Virus record (IMG/VR): IMGVR_UViG_2531839524_000011
DNA from: a virus
Taxonomy: Duplodnaviria; Heunggongvirae; Uroviricota; Caudoviricetes
Length of the DNA: 38,945 nucleotides
Reading direction: 5' to 3' (one strand)
In this document: positions 1 through 38,945 of the stretch, in pieces
Numbering within the stretch: position 1 is the stretch's first letter
How the letters are laid out: every line of letters starts with the position of its first letter
Made by a program: the position numbers and the translations under genes
The notes under the pieces: model-generated
Seen by the model: the letters and a program-made list of their open reading frames with translations, nothing else
Database searches by the model: none
What the model was told of the DNA's origin: nothing

Positions 1-1005
1 TTAATCCCCCGTGGACACTGCGTGGACACTCACGCCACCTTTCAGCGGATTAAGGGCCACCGCATCCTGCAGGTAATCCGGTGCAAAATGTGCATATGCC
101 ATTGTTTGCTGAATGGTTGCGTGGCCAAGAATCTTCTGAAGCGCAATAATGTTTCCTCCGTTCATCACAAAATGGCTGGCGAACGTATGCCGCAGCACAT
201 GTGCAGCCTGGCCTTTTGGTAAATCGGGCTTAACTCTTTTCAGCGCCAAGCAGAATTCCCGGTACTTCACCTCAAACAAGCCGCCTGTTTCTCTGGTTTT
301 GATCGCCTCACAAACTGCCTGCGAAATTGGCACCGTTCTCTTTCGGCCATTTTTGGTTTCAAGAAACGTTACACGGTTATGAACTATCTGTTCACCACGA
401 AGCTTACAAGCTTCACTCCAGCGCGCCCCTGTGCTTAAACACAAAAGCGCAACACGCCAGTAGTCGCCATCCAGTGTATCGAGCAATAGCGCTACTTCCT
501 TCTGGGACAGGAAAGCCATTTCTCGCGGGGATACATAAAGAATGGAGATCCCCCTTACCGGATGTTCTGCATCCCAAAGGCCTATTCTTTTCAGAACAGT
601 AAACATGCCGGATAGTCGGTTCATGTACCTGTTAGCAGATGACGGTTTCAATCCAGCAGCTATCTTTTGAGAACGCCACGCGATAATTTTCAGCTTATCA
701 AGATCCACAGCCTGCATATCAGCGCCAAGCTCATTGATTATGTTGCACAGTTGTTTTCGGTCTTCTTCCGCCTTACGCCTGTGCTGGCCGTGATACATCC
801 ACCACAACTCAAGCAAATCATTTAGCGTTCGACGATCACGGTAGCCCTGTATATATTCCCGCTTTTCAGCGTTCGCCATGATGTAGCGTTCAGTGGCCAC
901 CGCTACCGATTTTTTGTCAAATACCTTACGCACGCGCTTTCCCTTGCGTCCGTTCGGCCTGATGTCCAGCAAATAACGACCATCTTCGAGCTTCTTAATC
1001 GACAT
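1..1005 (-). CDS. int: Phage integrase, tyrosine recombinase (P2 Int-like)
   Basis: 339-aa minus-strand ORF; C-terminal catalytic region HVLRHTFASHF...LGHATIQQTMAYAHF typical of tyrosine recombinases; N-terminus MSIKKLEDGRY; ATG at 1003..1005 preferred over the TTG at 1018..1020; position at prophage left end. Confidence 0.9.
   Translation of the reverse strand: MSIKKLEDGRYLLDIRPNGRKGKRVRKVFDKKSVAVATERYIMANAEKREYIQGYRDRRTLNDLLELWWMYHGQHRRKAEEDRKQLCNIINELGADMQAVDLDKLKIIAWRSQKIAAGLKPSSANRYMNRLSGMFTVLKRIGLWDAEHPVRGISILYVSPREMAFLSQKEVALLLDTLDGDYWRVALLCLSTGARWSEACKLRGEQIVHNRVTFLETKNGRKRTVPISQAVCEAIKTRETGGLFEVKYREFCLALKRVKPDLPKGQAAHVLRHTFASHFVMNGGNIIALQKILGHATIQQTMAYAHFAPDYLQDAVALNPLKGGVSVHAVSTGD
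11..29. repeat. Candidate attL core (direct repeat of 37764..37783), overlapping the int 3' end
   Basis: gtggacactgcgtggacac here versus tgtggtcactgcgtggacat at 37764..37783; shared cactgcgtggaca core. Confidence 0.35.
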
Positions 1006-1101
1006 CGCGAAGCCCTCCAATGAACCGCTCTACAATTTCTCCAGCCTCTTTCCAGCAATAATCAGACCAGACAAAAAGCAGGTCTAACCAGTTTTCTGGC
1101 C

Positions 1102-3791: not shown

Positions 3792-3991
3792 ACAAAAAGA
3801 CTTGGTTTCGCGCATACATGTGGGCGCTGGTATGCGTCCTCATTTCTATCATTCTGTATGCAGGACTACTCCCCCGAATGATTTCATCAGACAGCTCCTT
3901 CCTGGTATTGCTGGGCATTTTCATTGCCATGCTGTACCCGGCAGGCGTTGTTCGCCTTTTCAGTAAGTACATCAAGGAAATCAAACAATGA
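3788..3991 (+). CDS. Small two-TM membrane protein (possible NfeD-like partner of the SPFH protein)
   Basis: 67 aa with two hydrophobic helices (WALVCVLISIILYAGLL and FLVLLGIFIAMLYPAGVV); 4-bp overlap with the downstream SPFH gene. Confidence 0.55.
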   Translation: MNKKTWFRAYMWALVCVLISIILYAGLLPRMISSDSSFLVLLGIFIAMLYPAGVVRLFSKYIKEIKQ

Positions 3992-4818
3992 AGAAATTCA
4001 GACTCTTTCAGATTATCCCGCTTTTTGCCGCCATCCTGCTGGTTGGTTGCGATCGCGTTGAGCCAGGTAATGTGGGCATCAAAGTCAACAAACTGGGCGA
4101 CGACAAAGGCGTCGGTGAAGTGGTTGGCGTTGGCCGCTACTGGACAGGCTGGAATACAGAGGTTTACATCTTCCCGACCTTCAAACAAATGAAGACCTAC
4201 GATGAGCCGTTCAGCTTCCAGATGAGCGACGGCACAACCATCGGCTATCACATCGGTGTGACCTACAAGGTTGATCCATCCAAAGTTACCACAGTGTTTC
4301 AGACCTACCGCAAAGGCGTGGATGACATTACCGACACTGACCTGCGCCAGAAGATCGCCGATGCACTCAACCGACTGGCCAGCAAAATGACCACCGATAA
4401 GTTTATCGACGGTGGTAAGTCTGAACTGCTGGATTCAGCACTTAAAGATATTCAGGAAGAGATGACCCCCATCGGCATTCAGGTCATGAGCCTCTCTTAT
4501 GTCGGTAAACCGGAATATCCGCCAACCGTTATCGACAGCATTAACGCCAAAGTCACGGCAAACCAGAAAACCCTGCAACGTGAACAGGAAGTCAAGCAAC
4601 GCGAAGCTGAAGCCAACATGCTGCGCGCAGAAGCTGCCGGACAGGCCGATGCCATTCGCACAAAAGCCCAGGCTGAAGCCGACGCCATTCGTTTACGCGG
4701 CGAAGCTCTGCGCCAGAATCCCGGCGTTATGGAGCTGGAAGCGATCAACAAATGGAACGGCACGCTGCCGCAATACATGACCAGTAACACCGCTGTTCCG
4801 TTCGTTCCCGTGAAGTAA
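3988..4818 (+). CDS. SPFH/band-7 (stomatin-prohibitin-flotillin-HflK/C-like) lipoprotein
   Basis: 276 aa; lipobox LLVGC after the signal peptide; band-7-like core and a C-terminal coiled-coil alanine/glutamate-rich segment (QREAEANMLRAEAAGQADAIRTKAQAEADAIRLRGEAL) typical of HflC/K-like proteins. Confidence 0.75.
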   Translation: MKKFRLFQIIPLFAAILLVGCDRVEPGNVGIKVNKLGDDKGVGEVVGVGRYWTGWNTEVYIFPTFKQMKTYDEPFSFQMSDGTTIGYHIGVTYKVDPSKVTTVFQTYRKGVDDITDTDLRQKIADALNRLASKMTTDKFIDGGKSELLDSALKDIQEEMTPIGIQVMSLSYVGKPEYPPTVIDSINAKVTANQKTLQREQEVKQREAEANMLRAEAAGQADAIRTKAQAEADAIRLRGEALRQNPGVMELEAINKWNGTLPQYMTSNTAVPFVPVK

Positions 4819-34372: not shown

Positions 34373-34529
34373 AGCTTCAGCCCCTTGTATCCGTTAAATG
34401 ATTCGGCAACAATCATCACCCACCACGCGCGTAATCTCACCCCCTGCGCCGTTCTCCCGCCACGGCGACAACAAAAAGCAGTAACCCCCTCCGCACGCAC
34501 ATGCGACCATGCCGCACAGGGAGGGAAAG

Positions 34530-35639
34530 ATGACCGACACCACCATGCAATTGCTCAGTCAGAGCACAGACCCCGTGAAAATGCCGGATTTTGATATTCT
34601 CGCGGAGGGGGAAACGCTGTCCGGCGTGGCAGAGCGCCTGATGAGTCTGTCACTGACCGACAACCGGGGATTTGAAGCGGACCAGCTCACCATCACGCTG
34701 GATGATGCGGATGGTCAGTTGCAGCTACCGCCACGGGGCGCGCGCCTGACGGTTCTCATTGGCTGGAAAGGAGAACCGCTGACAGAAAAAGGCACTTACA
34801 TTGTTGATGAAATCGCTCACGAAGGACCGCCGGACAGGCTGACGGTTTCAGCCAGAAGCGCAGATTTTCGGGATGAATTTAACGTTAAACGTGAGGTGTC
34901 CTGGCATGATGTGACCGTTGAGCGAGTGGTATCCGCCATCGCTCATCGGTACGGTCTGAAACCGCAAATCAGCGAAATGCTGATGGATATCGAAATCGAC
35001 CACGCCGACCAGACCGAAGAAAGTGACATGTCCTTCCTTACGCGCATGGCGGAAATGCTGGGCGCAATCACTACGGTAAAAAGCGGTAATCTGTTATTCA
35101 TCATGCCAGGTGGTGGCGTGAACGCACTGGGCCAGCCGTTGCCATCGTTCGCCATCACACGCAGCAGCGGCGATCGCCATCAGTTCCGCATTGCTGACCG
35201 CGAAGCGTATACGGGGGTACGCGCTTACTGGCTTGATCTTAATTACGGGAAAAAGAAAAAAGTCAGCGTGAAACGCCGCAAACCGCCAAAACCCAAAAAG
35301 GAGAAAAGCAGCAGCCGTGAAGGTGATTATATGGAAGGCGCAGAAGGCAATGTGTTTGTGTTACGCAAGACTTATCAGAACGAGCAGGCAGCAAGACGCG
35401 CAGCAGCGGCAAAATGGCAGCAGCTACAACGCGGAGCCGCATCATTCTCCATCACGCTGGCGCGTGGACGCGCAGAACTCTATCCCGAAATGCATGGCAC
35501 GGTGAAAGGCTTCAAAAGTGACATCGACAATCAGGACTGGATTATTGCAAAAGCTGAGCACACCATTGATAACAGCGGCTTTACCACACAGCTTGAGCTT
35601 GAGGCAAAAATCCCGGAATGGATAGCGGAAACAGAGTGA
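34530..35639 (+). CDS. D: Tail protein D (P2 gpD-like)
   Basis: ATG 34530 after agggaggga RBS; about 370 aa; position between FI and ogr. Confidence 0.85.
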   Translation: MTDTTMQLLSQSTDPVKMPDFDILAEGETLSGVAERLMSLSLTDNRGFEADQLTITLDDADGQLQLPPRGARLTVLIGWKGEPLTEKGTYIVDEIAHEGPPDRLTVSARSADFRDEFNVKREVSWHDVTVERVVSAIAHRYGLKPQISEMLMDIEIDHADQTEESDMSFLTRMAEMLGAITTVKSGNLLFIMPGGGVNALGQPLPSFAITRSSGDRHQFRIADREAYTGVRAYWLDLNYGKKKKVSVKRRKPPKPKKEKSSSREGDYMEGAEGNVFVLRKTYQNEQAARRAAAAKWQQLQRGAASFSITLARGRAELYPEMHGTVKGFKSDIDNQDWIIAKAEHTIDNSGFTTQLELEAKIPEWIAETE

Positions 35640-35681: not shown

Positions 35682-35942
35682 ATGTTCCGTTGTCCGCTTT
35701 GTGGCGCATCTGCCCGTATCCGCACCAGTCGTCCGGAAAATGATTCAAACACCGTGCGGCAAAAGTATTACCAGTGTAACAACCTGGAATGCGGCGTATG
35801 CTTCTCAACACTGGAAGCCTTCCATAAATTCACATCGAAACACGCCTCCGGCGTTCACTCATCAGAAGGTATTCCGTGGCATGAGCTGCCAGCTTCACAC
35901 AGGGGAAACAATCAGATGAGTTTGCCTTTACCTCAGAATTAA
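35682..35942 (+). CDS. ogr: Late-gene transcription activator (Ogr/Delta zinc-finger family)
   Basis: MFRCPLCGASARIRTSR...YYQCNNLECGVCFST has the Cys4 spacing of P2 Ogr; last gene of the P2 backbone. Confidence 0.8.
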   Translation: MFRCPLCGASARIRTSRPENDSNTVRQKYYQCNNLECGVCFSTLEAFHKFTSKHASGVHSSEGIPWHELPASHRGNNQMSLPLPQN

Positions 35943-36030: not shown

Positions 36031-36216
36031 ATGTGGAAGGGCCCCGAGTCAACTTTAACGTTAACCCGAGGCCCTAACCATCTACCCTTAGCAAGTGATA
36101 GGTTAGCGCCTCCCCGAAAAAGGAGCAAGCGCTATGTCGCAAAAATCGCTTACGGCCATCACGTTCTGCGTGACGGCAATCCTCATCATCTGGATGCTGC
36201 ACGGTTCGCTGTGTGA
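36031..36216 (+). CDS. Possible mok-like overlapping reading frame (modulator of hok translation)
   Basis: ORF in a different frame overlapping the 5' half of the hok-like CDS, as in hok/mok/sok loci; true start uncertain. Confidence 0.3.
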   Translation: MWKGPESTLTLTRGPNHLPLASDRLAPPRKRSKRYVAKIAYGHHVLRDGNPHHLDAARFAV

Positions 36217-36274
36217 AATACGGATGAGCTTCTGGGGAGCGGAGTTTGCGGCGTTCTTACAGTGTAAGCAGTAA
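36134..36274 (+). CDS. hok: Hok/Gef-family type I toxin (46 aa)
   Basis: MSQKSLTAITFCVTAILIIWMLHGSLCEIRMSFWGAEFAAFLQCKQ: single TM helix followed by the SLCEIR ... AAF motif shared with Hok/HokA as recalled; below the ORF-track cutoff. Confidence 0.7.
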   Translation: MSQKSLTAITFCVTAILIIWMLHGSLCEIRMSFWGAEFAAFLQCKQ

Positions 36275-36451
36275 GGAAACCGCGACGGGGGAGTAATCCC
36301 CCGTCAATCAGTTGCCAGGATAAGGTCGATAAGGCATCCTGTCTCACTCTATACCAGCTAATCAATTGACACATATCAATAAAAAGCCTGATAAAATCAA
36401 AATGTTTTGTTACAAATGTCAGCTAGTAGAGGGCCAAAGGAGGCAGATTAT

Positions 36452-36784
36452 ATGGCATTAATCAAATGTCCTGAATGCCAGAAAGAGGTGATCGATTCAG
36501 TATTGTCTTGCCCTGCTTGTGGCAAACAACTGAAAAATCTTAAACGCTCATTTTTTGGAGAACTCATTAAGTGTTTTTTTATATTATTTAATATTTTTAT
36601 AATCTACACGATTTGTATTGGGCTAAGAGAGGTGGGTGAAATAATAAACAACGCCACATCCGATGCCGAAAAAGCCGGTACAGTTATTGGTACGGGCTTA
36701 GGTTTAATTGCTATTGGAGGCTTATGGGTTATTGGCAATATCATTATCGGAAATTTAGTATTTCTTACTAAACCAAAGGGATAA
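36452..36784 (+). CDS. Zinc-ribbon membrane protein (110 aa)
   Basis: aaggagg RBS; CPECQ...CPACG zinc ribbon at the N-terminus followed by two hydrophobic helices; AT-rich. Confidence 0.5.
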   Translation: MALIKCPECQKEVIDSVLSCPACGKQLKNLKRSFFGELIKCFFILFNIFIIYTICIGLREVGEIINNATSDAEKAGTVIGTGLGLIAIGGLWVIGNIIIGNLVFLTKPKG

Positions 36785-36788
36785 CAAA

Positions 36789-37682
36789 ATGAAAAATGTG
36801 ATTATTTCTATAGGCGCATCATTTATATCAATTAGTGTGCTACCTGCTCACGCAGCAACTGAGCATAATAACTTTAAGTCATCACTCCAGTGCCGAGCAA
36901 TAGAAAATAATAAAGAAAGACTTTCTTGTTATGATAAGTCAATACAACCGACTCGAACGACAGTTGCTGAAAAATTCGAAAGCAGAGATCAATGCCCTGA
37001 TGAGAAAGATGATGACAGACGTTTATCTTGTTATGACCGTTTTTTTTCTCCAACATTTACTCCGCCTGTAAGCTCAAAATCTAAAGTGAAACAGCTAGTA
37101 ACAACAGAGACTCAGCAACCAAATCTTTCTGAGATATCTAAATGTCGAGCAGAAAACGATAAAGAAACTAGAGTAAACTGCTACGATAAACTATTTCCAC
37201 AGGAAAAAGCTACGCAATCTAAATCAAAATTAGAGAAAGCCACAGACTCAGGAAAATGGCACACATCCATTACTACATCGCCAATTGATGATTCGAAAAA
37301 TGTAATTTTATCGTTAGAAAGTGATGATTATATAAGAACTCCATTTGGAGAAGCGGTTACCCCTACTCTGTTTATAGCTTGCCGAGAAAAGAAAACCGAA
37401 GTATTTCTTAATTGGGATGTATATTTAGGCCTTGAACAAACCAGCATGCTGTATCGCCTTGATAAACAGAAAGCAGTTGAGCGAAACTGGCTAGTATCTA
37501 CAGATACAAAGGCTGTTTTTTATAAAGGCAATGACATTAACTTCATCAGAAAACTAGCCAACTCAAACAAAATGTATGCAAGAATAACCCCTTATAATGA
37601 AAGCCCTGTAAGTGCAACTTTCAATTTAAACGGCCTGTCAACCACGCTAAAACCGCTTCAAGAAGCCTGTAACTGGAAATAG
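36789..37682 (+). CDS. Secreted/periplasmic protein with three C-x8-R(L/V)xCYD(K/R) repeats
   Basis: Signal peptide MKNVIISIGASFISISVLPAHA; repeats CRAIENNKERLSCYDK, CPDEKDDDRRLSCYDR, CRAENDKETRVNCYDK; AT-rich. Confidence 0.55.
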   Translation: MKNVIISIGASFISISVLPAHAATEHNNFKSSLQCRAIENNKERLSCYDKSIQPTRTTVAEKFESRDQCPDEKDDDRRLSCYDRFFSPTFTPPVSSKSKVKQLVTTETQQPNLSEISKCRAENDKETRVNCYDKLFPQEKATQSKSKLEKATDSGKWHTSITTSPIDDSKNVILSLESDDYIRTPFGEAVTPTLFIACREKKTEVFLNWDVYLGLEQTSMLYRLDKQKAVERNWLVSTDTKAVFYKGNDINFIRKLANSNKMYARITPYNESPVSATFNLNGLSTTLKPLQEACNWK

Positions 37683-37712
37683 TATAAATCATGCGGCTAA
37701 GCCACAATCACA

Positions 37713-37750
37713 GATAACACAAAGCCCGTGAAAACGGGCTTTGTGTTATC
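37713..37750 (+). terminator. Perfect 16-bp stem-loop after the cargo operon
   Basis: gataacacaaagcccg-tgaaaa-cgggctttgtgttatc; no clear T-run, so possibly bidirectional or structural. Confidence 0.45.
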
Positions 37751-37763
37751 TATAACTCGAAAA

Positions 37764-37783
37764 TGTGGTCACTGCGTGGACAT
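37764..37783. repeat. Candidate attR core (direct repeat of 11..29)
   Basis: tgtggtcactgcgtggacat versus gtggacactgcgtggacac at the window start. Confidence 0.35.
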
Positions 37784-37949
37784 GCGCCGATACAAATCCT
37801 TTTATATCAAAAAGTTAAATCAACATCTTTTTCATCAACAAGGATTTTCACGTTTGTGTTACCTGTATGAGACGAGAGTTAACCGGACAAGTGTGCCATA
37901 ATCTCGCGGCCAGGCATACTTGCGAAGATTTCAGGTATAAGGATACGTA

Positions 37950-38945
37950 ATGATACAACCTATTTCCGGCCCTCCTCCTGGGCAACCACCAGGTCAGGGA
38001 GATAACCTGCCGTCTGGCGCGGGCAATCAGCCTTTATCCAGTCAGCAACGTACTTCGCTGGAAAGCTTAATGACGAAAGTGACCTCACTGACGCAACAGC
38101 AAAGAGCAGAACTGTGGGCGGGTATCAGGCACGATATTGGTCTGTCGGGAGATTCACCGCTGCTTTCGCGTCACTTCCCTGCCGCTGAGCATAATCTGGC
38201 GCAACGTCTGCTGGCCGCGCAAAAAAGCCATTCTGCCCGCCAGCTTTTAGCTCAATTAGGGGAGTATTTACGTCTGGGGAATAATCGTCAGGCGGTCACG
38301 GATTATATCCGTCATAACTTTGGTCAGACGCCGCTGAATCAGCTCTCACCGGAGCAATTAAAAACCATTCTCACCCTGTTGCAGGAAGGGAAGATGGTTA
38401 TTCCGCAACCGCAGCAGCGCGAGGCGACCGATCGTCCTCTATTACCGGCGGAGCACAATGCGCTCAAACAGCTGGTGACCAAACTTGCGGCGGCAACGGG
38501 GGAACCCAGCAAACAGATCTGGCAATCGATGCTGGAACTTTCCGGGGTGAAAGATGGTGAGTTAATTCCAGCGAAACTGTTTAACCATCTGGTGACCTGG
38601 CTGCAGGCGCGTCAGACGCTAAGCCAGCAAAATACGCCGACGCTGGAATCACTACAGATGACGCTAAAACAACCTTTAGATGCCAGTGAACTGGCGGCGT
38701 TATCGGCATATATCCAGCAAAAATATGGCCTTTCTGCGCAATCATCGCTTTCTTCTGCCCAGGCCGAGGATATTCTTAATCAGCTTTATCAACGGCGGGT
38801 TAAAGGGATTGATCCGCGTGATATGCAACCGCTGCTTAATCCTTTTCCACCGATGATGGACACGTTGCAAAATATGGCAACGCGTCCCGCGCTGTGGATA
38901 CTGTTAGTCGCGATTATCCTGATGCTGGTCTGGCTGGTTCGTTAA
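37950..38945 (+). CDS. flk: Host gene, Flk-like C-terminally membrane-anchored flagellar regulator
   Basis: 331 aa; proline-rich N-terminus MIQPISGPPPGQPPGQ and C-terminal TM anchor ALWILLVAIILMLVWLVR match my recollection of enterobacterial Flk; lies outside the candidate attR. Confidence 0.55.
   Translation: MIQPISGPPPGQPPGQGDNLPSGAGNQPLSSQQRTSLESLMTKVTSLTQQQRAELWAGIRHDIGLSGDSPLLSRHFPAAEHNLAQRLLAAQKSHSARQLLAQLGEYLRLGNNRQAVTDYIRHNFGQTPLNQLSPEQLKTILTLLQEGKMVIPQPQQREATDRPLLPAEHNALKQLVTKLAAATGEPSKQIWQSMLELSGVKDGELIPAKLFNHLVTWLQARQTLSQQNTPTLESLQMTLKQPLDASELAALSAYIQQKYGLSAQSSLSSAQAEDILNQLYQRRVKGIDPRDMQPLLNPFPPMMDTLQNMATRPALWILLVAIILMLVWLVR

Follow-up and report, generated by a model that had tools for sequence, protein, structure and literature searches.

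A P2-like prophage of E. coli (Xuanwuvirus/P88-type) carries, as accessory cargo at its end, two adjacent genes. The first, ORF1, encodes a putative zinc-ribbon protein with a predicted two-helix membrane hairpin, and the second, ORF2, a predicted exported protein whose sequence places it in the VasI/TagO family. VasI/TagO is an accessory protein of type VI secretion systems (T6SSs) with unknown function, and the branch of the family found here, which is sizeable, lives outside T6SSs. We propose, tentatively and at somewhat less than an even chance, that the two genes make up an operon for lysogenic conversion (a moron), whose products may form a two-part envelope complex that hinders other phages. 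This is not a first description of ORF2, which is already annotated in RefSeq, under the name TagO, and in the PhiSM paper on C. rodentium.

Position and composition of the pair

The whole stretch of DNA that was analysed, hereafter the window, is 38,945 nt long, and the features at its end are as follows.

35682-35942: ogr, 5' of the pair
36134-36274: hok, between ogr and the pair
36366-36397, plus strand: candidate sigma-70 promoter for the pair, as read from the sequence
36439-36445, plus strand: ribosome-binding site AAGGAGG, 6 nt before the start codon of ORF1 (36452)
36452-36784, plus strand: ORF1 (110 aa), putative zinc ribbon and predicted two-helix membrane hairpin
36789-37682, plus strand: ORF2 (297 aa), predicted exported VasI/TagO-family protein
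36789-36854, plus strand: ORF2 signal peptide (residues 1-22) from sequence features, with predicted cleavage after AHA
36891-36935, plus strand: Cys module 1 of ORF2 (residues 35-49), CRAIENNKERLSCYD, from the motif and the AF2 model
36993-37037, plus strand: Cys module 2 of ORF2 (residues 69-83), CPDEKDDDRRLSCYD, from the motif and the AF2 model
37143-37187, plus strand: Cys module 3 of ORF2 (residues 119-133), CRAENDKETRVNCYD, from the motif and Pfam VasI profile positions 1-30
37236-37679, plus strand: VasI/IalB-type beta-sandwich of ORF2 (residues 150-297), in which C198 and C294 are invariant
37712-37751, no strand: hairpin closing the unit, with an 18-bp perfect stem, terminator-like without a U-tract
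37765-37782, no strand: GTGGTCACTGCGTGGACA, candidate integrase arm-type site
37829-37848, no strand: att core (attR), TTTTCATCAACAAGGATTTT, from breakpoints in host and phage matches

The neighbours of the pair are ogr, hok, att and flk, and both genes lie downstream of the late genes (D, ogr) on the same strand. The description of the first-pass annotation, two AT-rich co-directional cargo genes, holds: both ORFs were confirmed, ORF2 starts 4 nt past the stop of ORF1 in the same direction, and the two form an island of low GC content (0.35-0.40 over positions 36400-37800, versus 0.50-0.59 in the phage backbone). Although the mechanical ORF of ORF1 extends over 36407-36784, translation probably begins at the ATG at 36452, which is preceded by AAGGAGG. 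The candidate promoter was read manually, with TTGACA at 36366-36371 and an extended -10 (TGATAAAAT) at 36389-36397, 20 nt apart. It would put the start of transcription near 36404. A consensus scan that allowed only spacers of 16-18 nt reported no promoter upstream of ORF1. A consensus scan of the plus strand after ORF2 found no canonical terminator. The strong hairpin that had been noticed at the end of the unit was borne out, with a folding energy of -45 kcal/mol when 108 nt are considered, a z-score of -6.6 compared to shuffles and three compensatory double substitutions in the stem relative to phage P88_4B11.

The boundary of the prophage could be placed from the ends of sequence matches. 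In prophage-free E. coli genomes the match to the window begins at 37829, and in the circular phage genome P88_4B11 it runs to 37848, which delimits an att core overlapping the first codons of pdxB (minus strand). The same breakpoints speak against attR being the repeat at 37765-37782 (a 13-18-mer), whose near-copy at window positions 11-28 lies in the 3' end of int; this repeat is more likely an arm-type site of the integrase. Because prophage-free genomes match only from 37829, the two genes are not conserved host genes flanking flk, and they are indeed missing from prophage-free E. coli. They are missing also from the close phage relatives P88, Chuche and 520873, as well as from classical P2. 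The pair lies inside the att boundary, is absent from close relatives, differs in composition from the backbone and ends in a hairpin, with a putative promoter of its own, in agreement with the moron position assigned to it before. The comparison of the interval between ogr and attR across prophages, which had been suggested as a check, showed that the pair recurs after ogr in several genera in addition to being missing from the three close relatives.

In these respects the pair resembles the morons and superinfection-exclusion genes known from prophage ends, of which P2 old/tin/fun and lambda rex/sieB are examples: it is accessory, atypical in GC content, dispensable for the phage, located in a variable hotspot near att, and provided with a putative promoter and a closing hairpin of its own. 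The proteins themselves are unrelated, and the pair sits at the ogr-att end rather than in the classical gpA-gpQ or Z/fun hotspots. The stretch from the tail gene to int/C, into which it falls, is variable and has been reported as a third P2 hotspot; lesser P2 defence hotspots have been reported beside int and att. The literature on P2 hotspots makes no mention of VasI, TagO or SDIC at this locus. A branch of the VasI family occupies this end, on the side of lysogeny, in P2-like prophages, which are known to carry antiviral systems.

Families and domains of the two proteins

ORF1 had been read as a zinc-ribbon protein with two transmembrane (TM) helices, and the sequence and the model are in line with this reading. 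The four cysteines of its CPEC-x10-CPAC motif (C6, C9, C20 and C23) are invariant among 17 homologs, the score against Pfam Zn_Ribbon_1 (PF13240) is just under the cutoff (24.5 bits versus 25), and the AF2 model consists of two long helices (residues 30-67 and 71-105) with short beta strands of moderate confidence in the zinc-ribbon region. The membrane helices span residues of about 37-57 and 78-104. From the positive-inside rule (K25, K28, K31 and R32 before the helices, K107 and K109 after them) we infer that the ribbon faces the cytoplasm and that the short turn between the helices, where E73, A75 and G76 are invariant, faces the periplasm. ORF1 matches phrog_6586 (1e-32), and precomputed matches of its Klebsiella homologs to PF28000, a model for DrpB, are weak. 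Its membrane domain also bears a weak likeness to DrpB (YedR), a two-TM divisome protein of E. coli: the alignment covers nearly the whole DrpB profile and includes the C-terminal motif T-(K/R)-P-(K/R), with low scores both in NCBIfam (NF038392, E 0.0058, 16.9 bits versus a cutoff of 50) and in hhalign (probability 17%, E 1.4e-3). Unlike ORF1, DrpB has no zinc ribbon.

The first-pass annotation recognised no family for either protein, which proved wrong for ORF2. Pfam VasI (PF11319) matches it with 87.7 bits, well above the gathering threshold of 26.5 (E = 1e-24), profile positions 1-184 aligning with residues 118-296 and two more stretches aligning further N-terminally. ORF2 also matches phrog_1848 (1e-36), and a search of the BFVD viral structures returned uncharacterised phage proteins only. 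Its N-terminus (MKNVIISIGASFISISVLPAHA, followed by AT) reads as a Sec-type signal peptide, with K2 in the n-region, a hydrophobic core and an AxA cleavage site (A-H-A at -3 to -1). The motif C-x8-R-(L/V)-x-C-Y-D then occurs at residues 35-49, 69-83 and 119-133, so that the earlier picture of a signal-peptide protein with a triplicated Cys motif can be retained. In terms of the VasI profile, the repeat corresponds to the first 30 positions present three times: module 3 aligns with the lone module of canonical VasI proteins, and module 1 is modelled by AF2 as a short helix pair (pLDDT 77-79). Homologs of ORF2 carry one, two or three copies, in which the motif is conserved. Given this conservation and the three separate stretches matched by Pfam VasI, the repeat is not a chance feature. 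An LprI/DUF1311-like lysozyme-inhibitor fold, raised earlier for the Cys-repeat protein, was not borne out, as Pfam PF07007 gave no signal on the repeats even at E <= 10.

The beta-sandwich also recalls IalB (invasion-associated locus B) of Bartonella (PDB 3dtd), which shares 17% identity with ORF2 and, unlike it, has neither Cys modules nor a zinc-ribbon partner. An IalB-like periplasmic or surface protein could serve the lysogen as a host-interaction or fitness factor by altering envelope traits that matter for colonisation (adhesion, invasion or stress tolerance) instead of resistance to phages. We consider this role unlikely, because ORF2 fails to reach the Pfam threshold for IalB (E 0.0086), the mechanism of IalB is itself unknown, relatives of ORF2 are spread among free-living and marine bacteria as well as lytic phages, and adhesin-like features were not found in the pair. 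Nor was any toxin, enzymatic or effector domain found in ORF1 or ORF2, and nothing points to a toxin-immunity pair.

Synteny, single-chain fusions and selection

P2-like prophages with the pair at their ogr-att end were seen in Escherichia, Citrobacter, Klebsiella, Raoultella, Enterobacter, Dickeya, Brenneria and Salmonella, and they occupy several integration sites. Of the 80 best IMG/VR contigs with a relative of ORF2, 65 have ORF1 directly upstream of it, as do 64 of the 67 among them that are clearly P2-like. The two genes are 4 nt apart here and overlap in some relatives. Among complete E. coli genomes, 237 out of 5,426 (about 4%) carry the pair, mostly at 90-95% identity (191 genomes), with another 44 genomes at 95-99%.

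In other bacteria the two proteins are found in one chain. In the protein P0290, an ORF1-like two-TM domain (39% identity) is followed by a third TM helix and by a VasI domain that is 29% identical to ORF2 and scores 38 bits in Pfam, and P0282 shares this architecture (hhalign 99.4%). In chains of this type, the third membrane helix sits where ORF2 has its signal peptide. Two further examples (L034 and L054) combine a VasI-like domain with a zinc ribbon and TM helices, the first above and the second just below the Pfam VasI cutoff. The Cys module is missing from the membrane-tethered forms. Together with the spacing and the synteny, these fusions support the earlier view of the two genes as one unit. 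Since an ORF1-like anchor and a VasI domain are fused in single chains, ORF1 and ORF2 probably form one complex, in which case ORF1 is a membrane partner dedicated to the VasI-like protein, one that other bacteria attach to it covalently.

VasI domains are also fused elsewhere to SPOR, PG_binding_1 and TonB_C domains, which argues for a periplasmic role. The SPOR and peptidoglycan-binding fusions, the location of the pair just downstream of the late genes on the same strand and the likeness of the ORF1 membrane domain to DrpB would all fit a helper of the lytic cycle, expressed late, whose action on cell wall or divisome during phage development could concern the timing of lysis or targeting to the septum. 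This is quite unlikely, however, because viable relatives and classical P2 do without the pair, hok and a hairpin stand between ogr and ORF1, and the resemblance to DrpB is faint. Moreover, the lysogeny module is where other temperate elements carry a VasI-like gene, between a cI-like repressor and the integrase.

Signs of decay are present in part of the family. An O6:H16 ETEC genome, which was examined for the 95-99% identity band, has ORF2 broken by a frameshift into pieces of 93 and 188 aa, so that the gene is dispensable at least in that host. Truncated members of ORF2 are common in its 90% protein cluster, and some IMG/VR copies carry frameshifts. These lesions, and a dN/dS of up to 0.7 for ORF1, could be taken to mean that the pair is decaying passenger DNA with no present function in this host, which we regard as highly improbable. 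Neither ORF is broken in this prophage or in the copy that was examined for the 90-95% band, and the same holds for the loci looked at in Klebsiella, Enterobacter and Dickeya, where identity is only 47-65%. The dN/dS values are below 1 for ORF1 (0.36-0.70) as well as for ORF2 (0.24-0.34), which indicates purifying selection on both genes. The invariant Cys and Gly columns lead to the same conclusion of selection on the pair, and the compensatory changes in the hairpin also speak against decay.

Type VI secretion and phage exclusion at the envelope

The VasI/TagO protein of T6SSs (VCA0118 of V. cholerae; PF11319, TIGR03360) belongs to the same Pfam family as ORF2. The two have in common a signal peptide, a C-x8-RLxCYD module near the N-terminus, the beta domain and a C-terminal A-C-x-W, and both are predicted to be exported. 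Only in ORF2 is the N-terminal module triplicated, and only ORF2 is encoded by a prophage, away from T6SS genes; it has a dedicated zinc-ribbon membrane partner, whereas T6SS clusters carry none next to vasI. On the T6SS equivalog TIGR03360, ORF2 scores 72.8 bits, under the cutoff of 124.2, compared to 257.4 bits for VasI of the E. coli EDL933 T6SS-2, and its identity to the E. coli T6SS VasI is 22%. T6SS clusters hold vasI between tssH or vasH and tssA, and the ORF2 locus does not have this layout. No T6SS genes lie beside the phage-borne or orphan relatives of ORF2 that were examined, and the 25 Pfam families that occur most often among 147 neighbours at 27 non-P2 loci include none from T6SSs. 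By its equivalog score, its identity and its gene context, ORF2 is not a genuine component of a T6SS.

A looser connection could still exist, with the extra VasI/TagO tuning the T6SS of the host or shielding the lysogen envelope against T6SSs or tailocins. P2 tails and T6SSs are homologous machines, and the Pfam family and RefSeq name of ORF2 point in the same direction. VasI of V. cholerae is exported and contributes to killing even though it is dispensable for Hcp secretion, and the PhiSM paper lists the homolog of ORF2 among T6SS/virulence cargo genes. Nevertheless, we judge such a connection to be rather doubtful, because the scores and neighbourhoods reported above separate ORF2 from T6SS proteins and because the T6SS function of the VasI family is itself listed as unknown. 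Even if the function of the pair turned out to be mundane, a misleading "type VI secretion" label on prophage cargo, already taken as a virulence trait in the case of PhiSM, is hereby corrected.

A role of VasI-like proteins in phage defence has been reported once. SDIC4B of Serratia, which has a VasI fold, protects on its own 10-200-fold against phages (bioRxiv 10.1101/2024.01.28.577318). SDIC4 (SDIC4A, AWY87_RS24860, and SDIC4B, AWY87_RS12625) and the pair are both two-gene operons with a VasI-like fold in the main component (SDIC4B and ORF2, respectively), both lie outside T6SS loci, and both are common in Klebsiella, Salmonella, Citrobacter, Enterobacter and E. coli. A VasI-like fold outside a T6SS locus, which characterises SDIC4, is found in ORF2 from the Pfam match, the IalB/VasI-type AF2 model and the prophage context. 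The two systems differ in location, since SDIC4 resides in chromosomal LptG-YjiA islands, usually beside BrxR, which is absent from the ORF1-ORF2 locus. Furthermore, SDIC4B has no BLAST similarity to VasI according to its authors (10.1101/2024.01.28.577318), whereas ORF2 matches Pfam VasI directly, and the precedent therefore holds at the level of the fold only. No Serratia relative of ORF2 was detected in the genome scan or profile search. PADLOC-DB v2 (2023), which predates SDIC4, had no match for ORF1 and for ORF2 only a chance-level one to Cas1e (E 0.049). Some relatives of ORF2 adjoin GmrSD, methyltransferase, AbiLi-like or AriA-like genes, and in non-phage loci this defence-gene neighbourhood signal is weak and heterogeneous.

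Among the roles proposed, exclusion or defence is the most plausible, and we favour it solely by analogy with SDIC4B. In the exclusion model, the operon would be expressed in the lysogen and ORF1 would form a helical hairpin in the inner membrane, its zinc ribbon facing the cytoplasm. ORF2 would be exported by the Sec pathway and then oxidised in the periplasm, where disulfides may staple each of its three helical modules and one more may form in the beta domain. ORF1 would hold the beta-sandwich of ORF2 at the membrane, probably via the Cys modules, and the complex, which would not be part of a T6SS machine, may hinder the entry of other phages at the lysogen envelope through superinfection exclusion or defence. 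Being small and clonable, and present in about one in twenty-five complete E. coli genomes and repeatedly in Klebsiella prophages, this two-gene unit offers a way to test VasI-fold proteins as envelope-level anti-phage factors, as the single report on SDIC4 suggests, and to learn their mode of action.

A more specific version of the exclusion model, which we consider unlikely, starts from the single-chain proteins. ORF1 and ORF2 could be the split form of a widespread and uncharacterised envelope protein in which a two-helix anchor and a third TM helix precede a VasI/IalB beta-sandwich in the periplasm. Temperate phages would deploy it as a new class of envelope-level exclusion device that interferes with injection across the periplasm. 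Its targets would be contractile or other injectors (incoming phage tails, tailocins and T6SSs), and one to three expandable Cys-hairpin modules would dock ORF2 in place of the covalent tether. If true, this would hint that VasI/TagO guides or shields the tube crossing the periplasm in T6SSs.

Position of the gene pair at the prophage end

The window contains a segment of E. coli chromosome with a P2-like prophage of the P88/Xuanwuvirus type. One prophage end carries int, the other carries ORF1 and ORF2, and the host side past the prophage continues with flk and then yfcJ (outside the window).

Features of the window
1-1020, minus strand: int
34509-35639: late gene D
35682-35942: ogr
36134-36274: hok/mokW-type gene
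36452-36784: ORF1, zinc-ribbon protein with two transmembrane (TM) helices
36789-37682: ORF2, 297 aa, starting 4 nt past the ORF1 stop
37712-37751: 18-bp perfect hairpin, 3' of ORF2
37829-37848: att core TTTTCATCAACAAGGATTTT, overlapping the first pdxB codons (minus strand), from host and phage P88_4B11 breakpoints

The genes follow the order D, ogr, hok/mokW-type, ORF1 and ORF2, the last two being co-directional, and GC is 0.35-0.40 over 36400-37800 compared with 0.50-0.59 in the phage backbone. The mechanical ORF of ORF1 starts with a TTG at 36407, while the ATG at 36452 follows a strong AAGGAGG by 6 nt, is the start used by RefSeq, and gives the 110 aa found in every ORF1 homolog. All elements of the first-pass annotation (genes, GC drop, Cys repeats and hairpin) were recovered where it had placed them. 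A GC-rich hairpin (36283-36306, GACGGGGGA-gtaa-TCCCCCGTC) lies directly 3' of hok, between hok and the AT-rich pair, and was called a terminator for the minus strand only.

We compared window 37500-38300 with complete E. coli genomes, all of which matched (5426/5426). Only 225 of the 5426 matched over most of the query, and in every lower-ranked genome sampled the match starts at 37829 and overlaps pdxB and flk. The circular genome of P88_4B11 matches up to window position 37848, past which it runs into its own integrase. The att core therefore corresponds to 37829-37848, and because it overlaps the first pdxB codons, the prophage lies in the 5' end of pdxB. ORF1 and ORF2 are inside the prophage. 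The alternative that the first-pass annotation had named against a cargo position, namely that they are conserved host genes adjoining flk, is excluded, as the lower-ranked E. coli genomes sampled match only from 37829. The pdxB start is readable on the minus strand at the att core and 37849-37870 (GTG AAA ATC CTT GTT GAT GAA); the rest of the gene must be outside the window, past its left end, and its start must have been rebuilt at attL.

The hairpin that closes the pair folds far better than shuffled sequences (z -6.6), and three of its base pairs are altered on both sides between the window and P88_4B11, which argues for selection on the structure. The hairpin lacks a U-tract, and a consensus scan did not call it a terminator. 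Between this hairpin and the att core, GTGGTCACTGCGTGGACA (37765-37782) is conserved in P88_4B11 and has a near-identical copy, GTGGACACTGCGTGGACA, at 11-28, within the 3'-terminal part of int. A GTGGnCA direct repeat is present in both copies, which are candidate arm-type binding sites of the integrase.

ORF2 and the VasI/TagO family

[quoted passage not shown] The first-pass annotation had recognised no family for it with confidence, yet ORF2 matches Pfam VasI (PF11319) with 87.7 bits (gathering threshold 26.5), as well as phrog_1848. On the NCBIfam equivalog TIGR03360 it scores 72.8 bits, under the cutoff of 124.2; the genuine T6SS-2 VasI of E. coli EDL933, encoded between tssH and tssA, reaches 257 bits and shares 22% identity with ORF2. 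All nine traced ORF2 homologs (down to ~45% identity) lie at the ogr end of P2-like prophages, at several integration sites in Klebsiella, Enterobacter, Dickeya, Salmonella and E. coli. No T6SS cluster surrounds any of the nine in the contigs and loci inspected, and T6SS families are absent from the most frequent Pfam families among 147 neighbour proteins at 27 non-P2 loci of distant relatives. A rival explanation, that the pair has a T6SS- or tailocin-related role, has the family match in its favour and this genomic context against it.

A VasI-like gene also lies between cpxP and fieF in Phytobacter (L025, 5950-6579) and Izhakiella (L026, 5573-7021), and neither P2 gpD nor ogr occurs within 6 kb of it. 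The Izhakiella locus additionally has an ORF1-like sequence and a zinc-ribbon gene of the TM2 type. The VasI-like gene of Klebsiella and Enterobacter P2-like prophages adjoins fieF in the same place, and the Phytobacter and Izhakiella genes look like cargo retained after prophage loss. In non-P2 temperate elements from IMG/VR (L128-L131, L135, L136; ~3900-4560), a one-module VasI-like gene without zinc-ribbon partner has a cI-like HTH repressor on one side and a tyrosine integrase on the other.

ORF2 has the motif C-x8-R-(L/V)-x-C-Y-D at residues 35, 69 and 119, and in the AF2 model each module is a short helix pair, with disordered linkers in between. Because the repeat region alone aligns with the VasI profile three times, and only with its positions 1-30, the Cys repeat is a triplicated N-terminal VasI module. 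The LprI/DUF1311 resemblance that had been proposed for checking was not borne out by a Pfam search of this region alone. The EDL933 T6SS-2 locus includes a DUF1311/LprI-like gene (L057, 17166-17615) that is separated from vasI by only a few genes and has no detectable similarity to the ORF2 Cys modules. The E. coli T6SS VasI has one module, and homologs form length classes of ~210-218 aa (one module), ~250 aa (two) and ~297 aa (three). The eight cysteines with pairwise-conserved spacing and the signal peptide (AHA|AT) suggest that ORF2 is a disulfide-bonded periplasmic protein.

ORF1 and its coupling to ORF2

ORF1 contains CPEC-x10-CPAC, with all four cysteines invariant, followed by a basic stretch. 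Its AF2 model has two long helices, 30-67 and 71-105, on either side of a short turn in which E73, A75 and G76 are invariant. By the positive-inside rule, the predicted topology has both the zinc ribbon and the C-terminus on the cytoplasmic side. Homologs with 47-81% identity lie immediately 5' of a VasI-like gene in prophages of Klebsiella, Raoultella, Enterobacter, Dickeya, Brenneria, Salmonella and Citrobacter. Among the best 80 IMG/VR contigs with an ORF2 relative, ORF1 is directly upstream in 65, and the remainder are 3 P2-like contigs without ORF1 and 12 other elements.

An ORF1-family profile search, run exhaustively and yielding 265 cluster representatives at E <= 1e-10, recovered single-chain proteins holding both ORF1-like and VasI parts. 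In one of them, the 310-aa P0290, the N-terminal part (residues 6-88) aligns with ORF1 25-109 at 39% identity and the C-terminal part (residues 149-309) with ORF2 140-297 at 29% identity (Pfam VasI 38 bits); between the two come a short basic linker and then a third TM helix. Two further proteins have this architecture, P0282 (hhalign 99.4% to the VasI profile) and, judged by eye, P0295. Independent fusions in Desulfobulbaceae (L034) and Aeoliella (L054) likewise have a VasI-like domain in a single chain with a zinc ribbon and TM helices, L034 scoring above and L054 just below the Pfam VasI cutoff. The Cys module is absent from the tethered forms. These gene fusions are the strongest sequence-based evidence suggesting that ORF1 and ORF2 work together, and the simplest reading is that the two would form a split version of one membrane-anchored protein. 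The ORF2 signal peptide would then stand where single-chain forms have the third TM helix, and the Cys modules plausibly supply non-covalent attachment to ORF1.

Elsewhere, the VasI domain is fused to SPOR, PG_binding_1 and TonB_C, which may point to a periplasmic role near the cell wall. The membrane domain of ORF1 has a weak similarity to DrpB, a divisome protein. Two proteins (P0209, P0236) combine an ORF1-type two-TM domain with Pfam tRNA_anti-like (OB-fold) domains; this two-TM domain seems to serve generally as a membrane anchor for extracytoplasmic domains. Small partners of a second type consist of a zinc ribbon fused to a Pfam TM2 domain (98 aa, two TM helices). One of them, in a different P2-like prophage of E. 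coli (L009-L011, 6001-7126), adjoins a VasI-like gene with two Cys modules that lies on the opposite strand, in convergent orientation, and another lies 2 kb 3' of an ORF1/VasI pair in a Salmonella prophage (L028, 8542-8838).

Variation, selection and probable function

The hok-att interval is a variable cargo locus. In P88, Chuche and 520873 the match to the window stops at the hok region, while the pair is present in 500465-2, PhiR44_2, C. rodentium PhiSM and P88_4B11, the last with extra small ORFs inserted ahead of it. Lesser P2 defence hotspots adjoining int and att have been reported in the literature. Related prophages carry cargo between D and ogr, either a 1023-nt hypothetical gene on the opposite strand (L140, NZ_CP196262.1, 434-1456) or an alpha/beta-hydrolase gene (L009, 8204-8962), and this junction is therefore a further variable spot. 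The pair occurs in 237 E. coli genomes, 191 of them in the 90-95% identity band. Nine of its 238 places in E. coli genomes are on plasmid-typed records, which could be phage-plasmids or assembly artefacts.

The dN/dS values of ORF1 (0.36-0.70) and ORF2 (0.24-0.34), compared with gpD (0.12-0.17), show that both genes are under purifying selection, looser than gpD. This bears on the rival explanation that the pair is decaying DNA, which has on its side an O6:H16 ETEC genome (L139, NZ_CP024275.1, 1347-2257; ~98% nucleotide identity) where ORF1 is intact and ORF2 is frameshifted into two pieces, annotated as a "hypothetical protein" (93 aa) and, lacking the signal peptide, a "TagO" (188 aa). ORF2 is intact in the window and in one copy examined from the 90-95% identity band. 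Several viral contigs from IMG/VR (L078-L082, L086) have an ORF2 copy 1 nt shorter.

RefSeq already labels ORF2, whose family is known, and the PhiSM paper puts its homolog among virulence cargo under the name "T6SS VasI family protein". In the literature searched we found no description of this distinct non-T6SS VasI branch tied to the ogr-att end of Peduoviridae, of its N-terminal module varying from one to three copies, or of its dedicated zinc-ribbon two-TM partner, which is fused to it in other bacteria. A 2026 review lists the function of T6SS VasI as "unknown"; the V. cholerae protein is not required for Hcp secretion but contributes to killing. For VasI-fold proteins outside T6SS, the one functional lead is SDIC4, a two-gene anti-phage operon of Serratia whose VasI-fold SDIC4B alone gives 10-200-fold protection against several phages (bioRxiv 10.1101/2024.01.28.577318), and which has been described as common in Klebsiella, Salmonella, Citrobacter, Enterobacter and E. 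coli. Both SDIC4 and the pair have two genes and a component with a VasI-like fold; according to its authors SDIC4B has no BLAST similarity to VasI, whereas ORF2 matches Pfam VasI. A genome scan and a profile search found no Serratia relatives of ORF2.

Sequence analysis suggested no enzyme or toxin features in either protein. The likeliest role, which we hold tentatively, is envelope-level exclusion or defence expressed by the lysogen, where we infer the anti-phage step. Further rival explanations are an IalB-like role in host interaction and help in the lytic cycle. Exclusion or defence fits the placement of the pair as a moron, its repeated occurrence at the lysogeny-side end of P2-like phages, the VasI-like genes between repressor and integrase in other temperate elements, and the occasional neighbours, which include GmrSD, methyltransferases and AbiLi/AriA-like genes.
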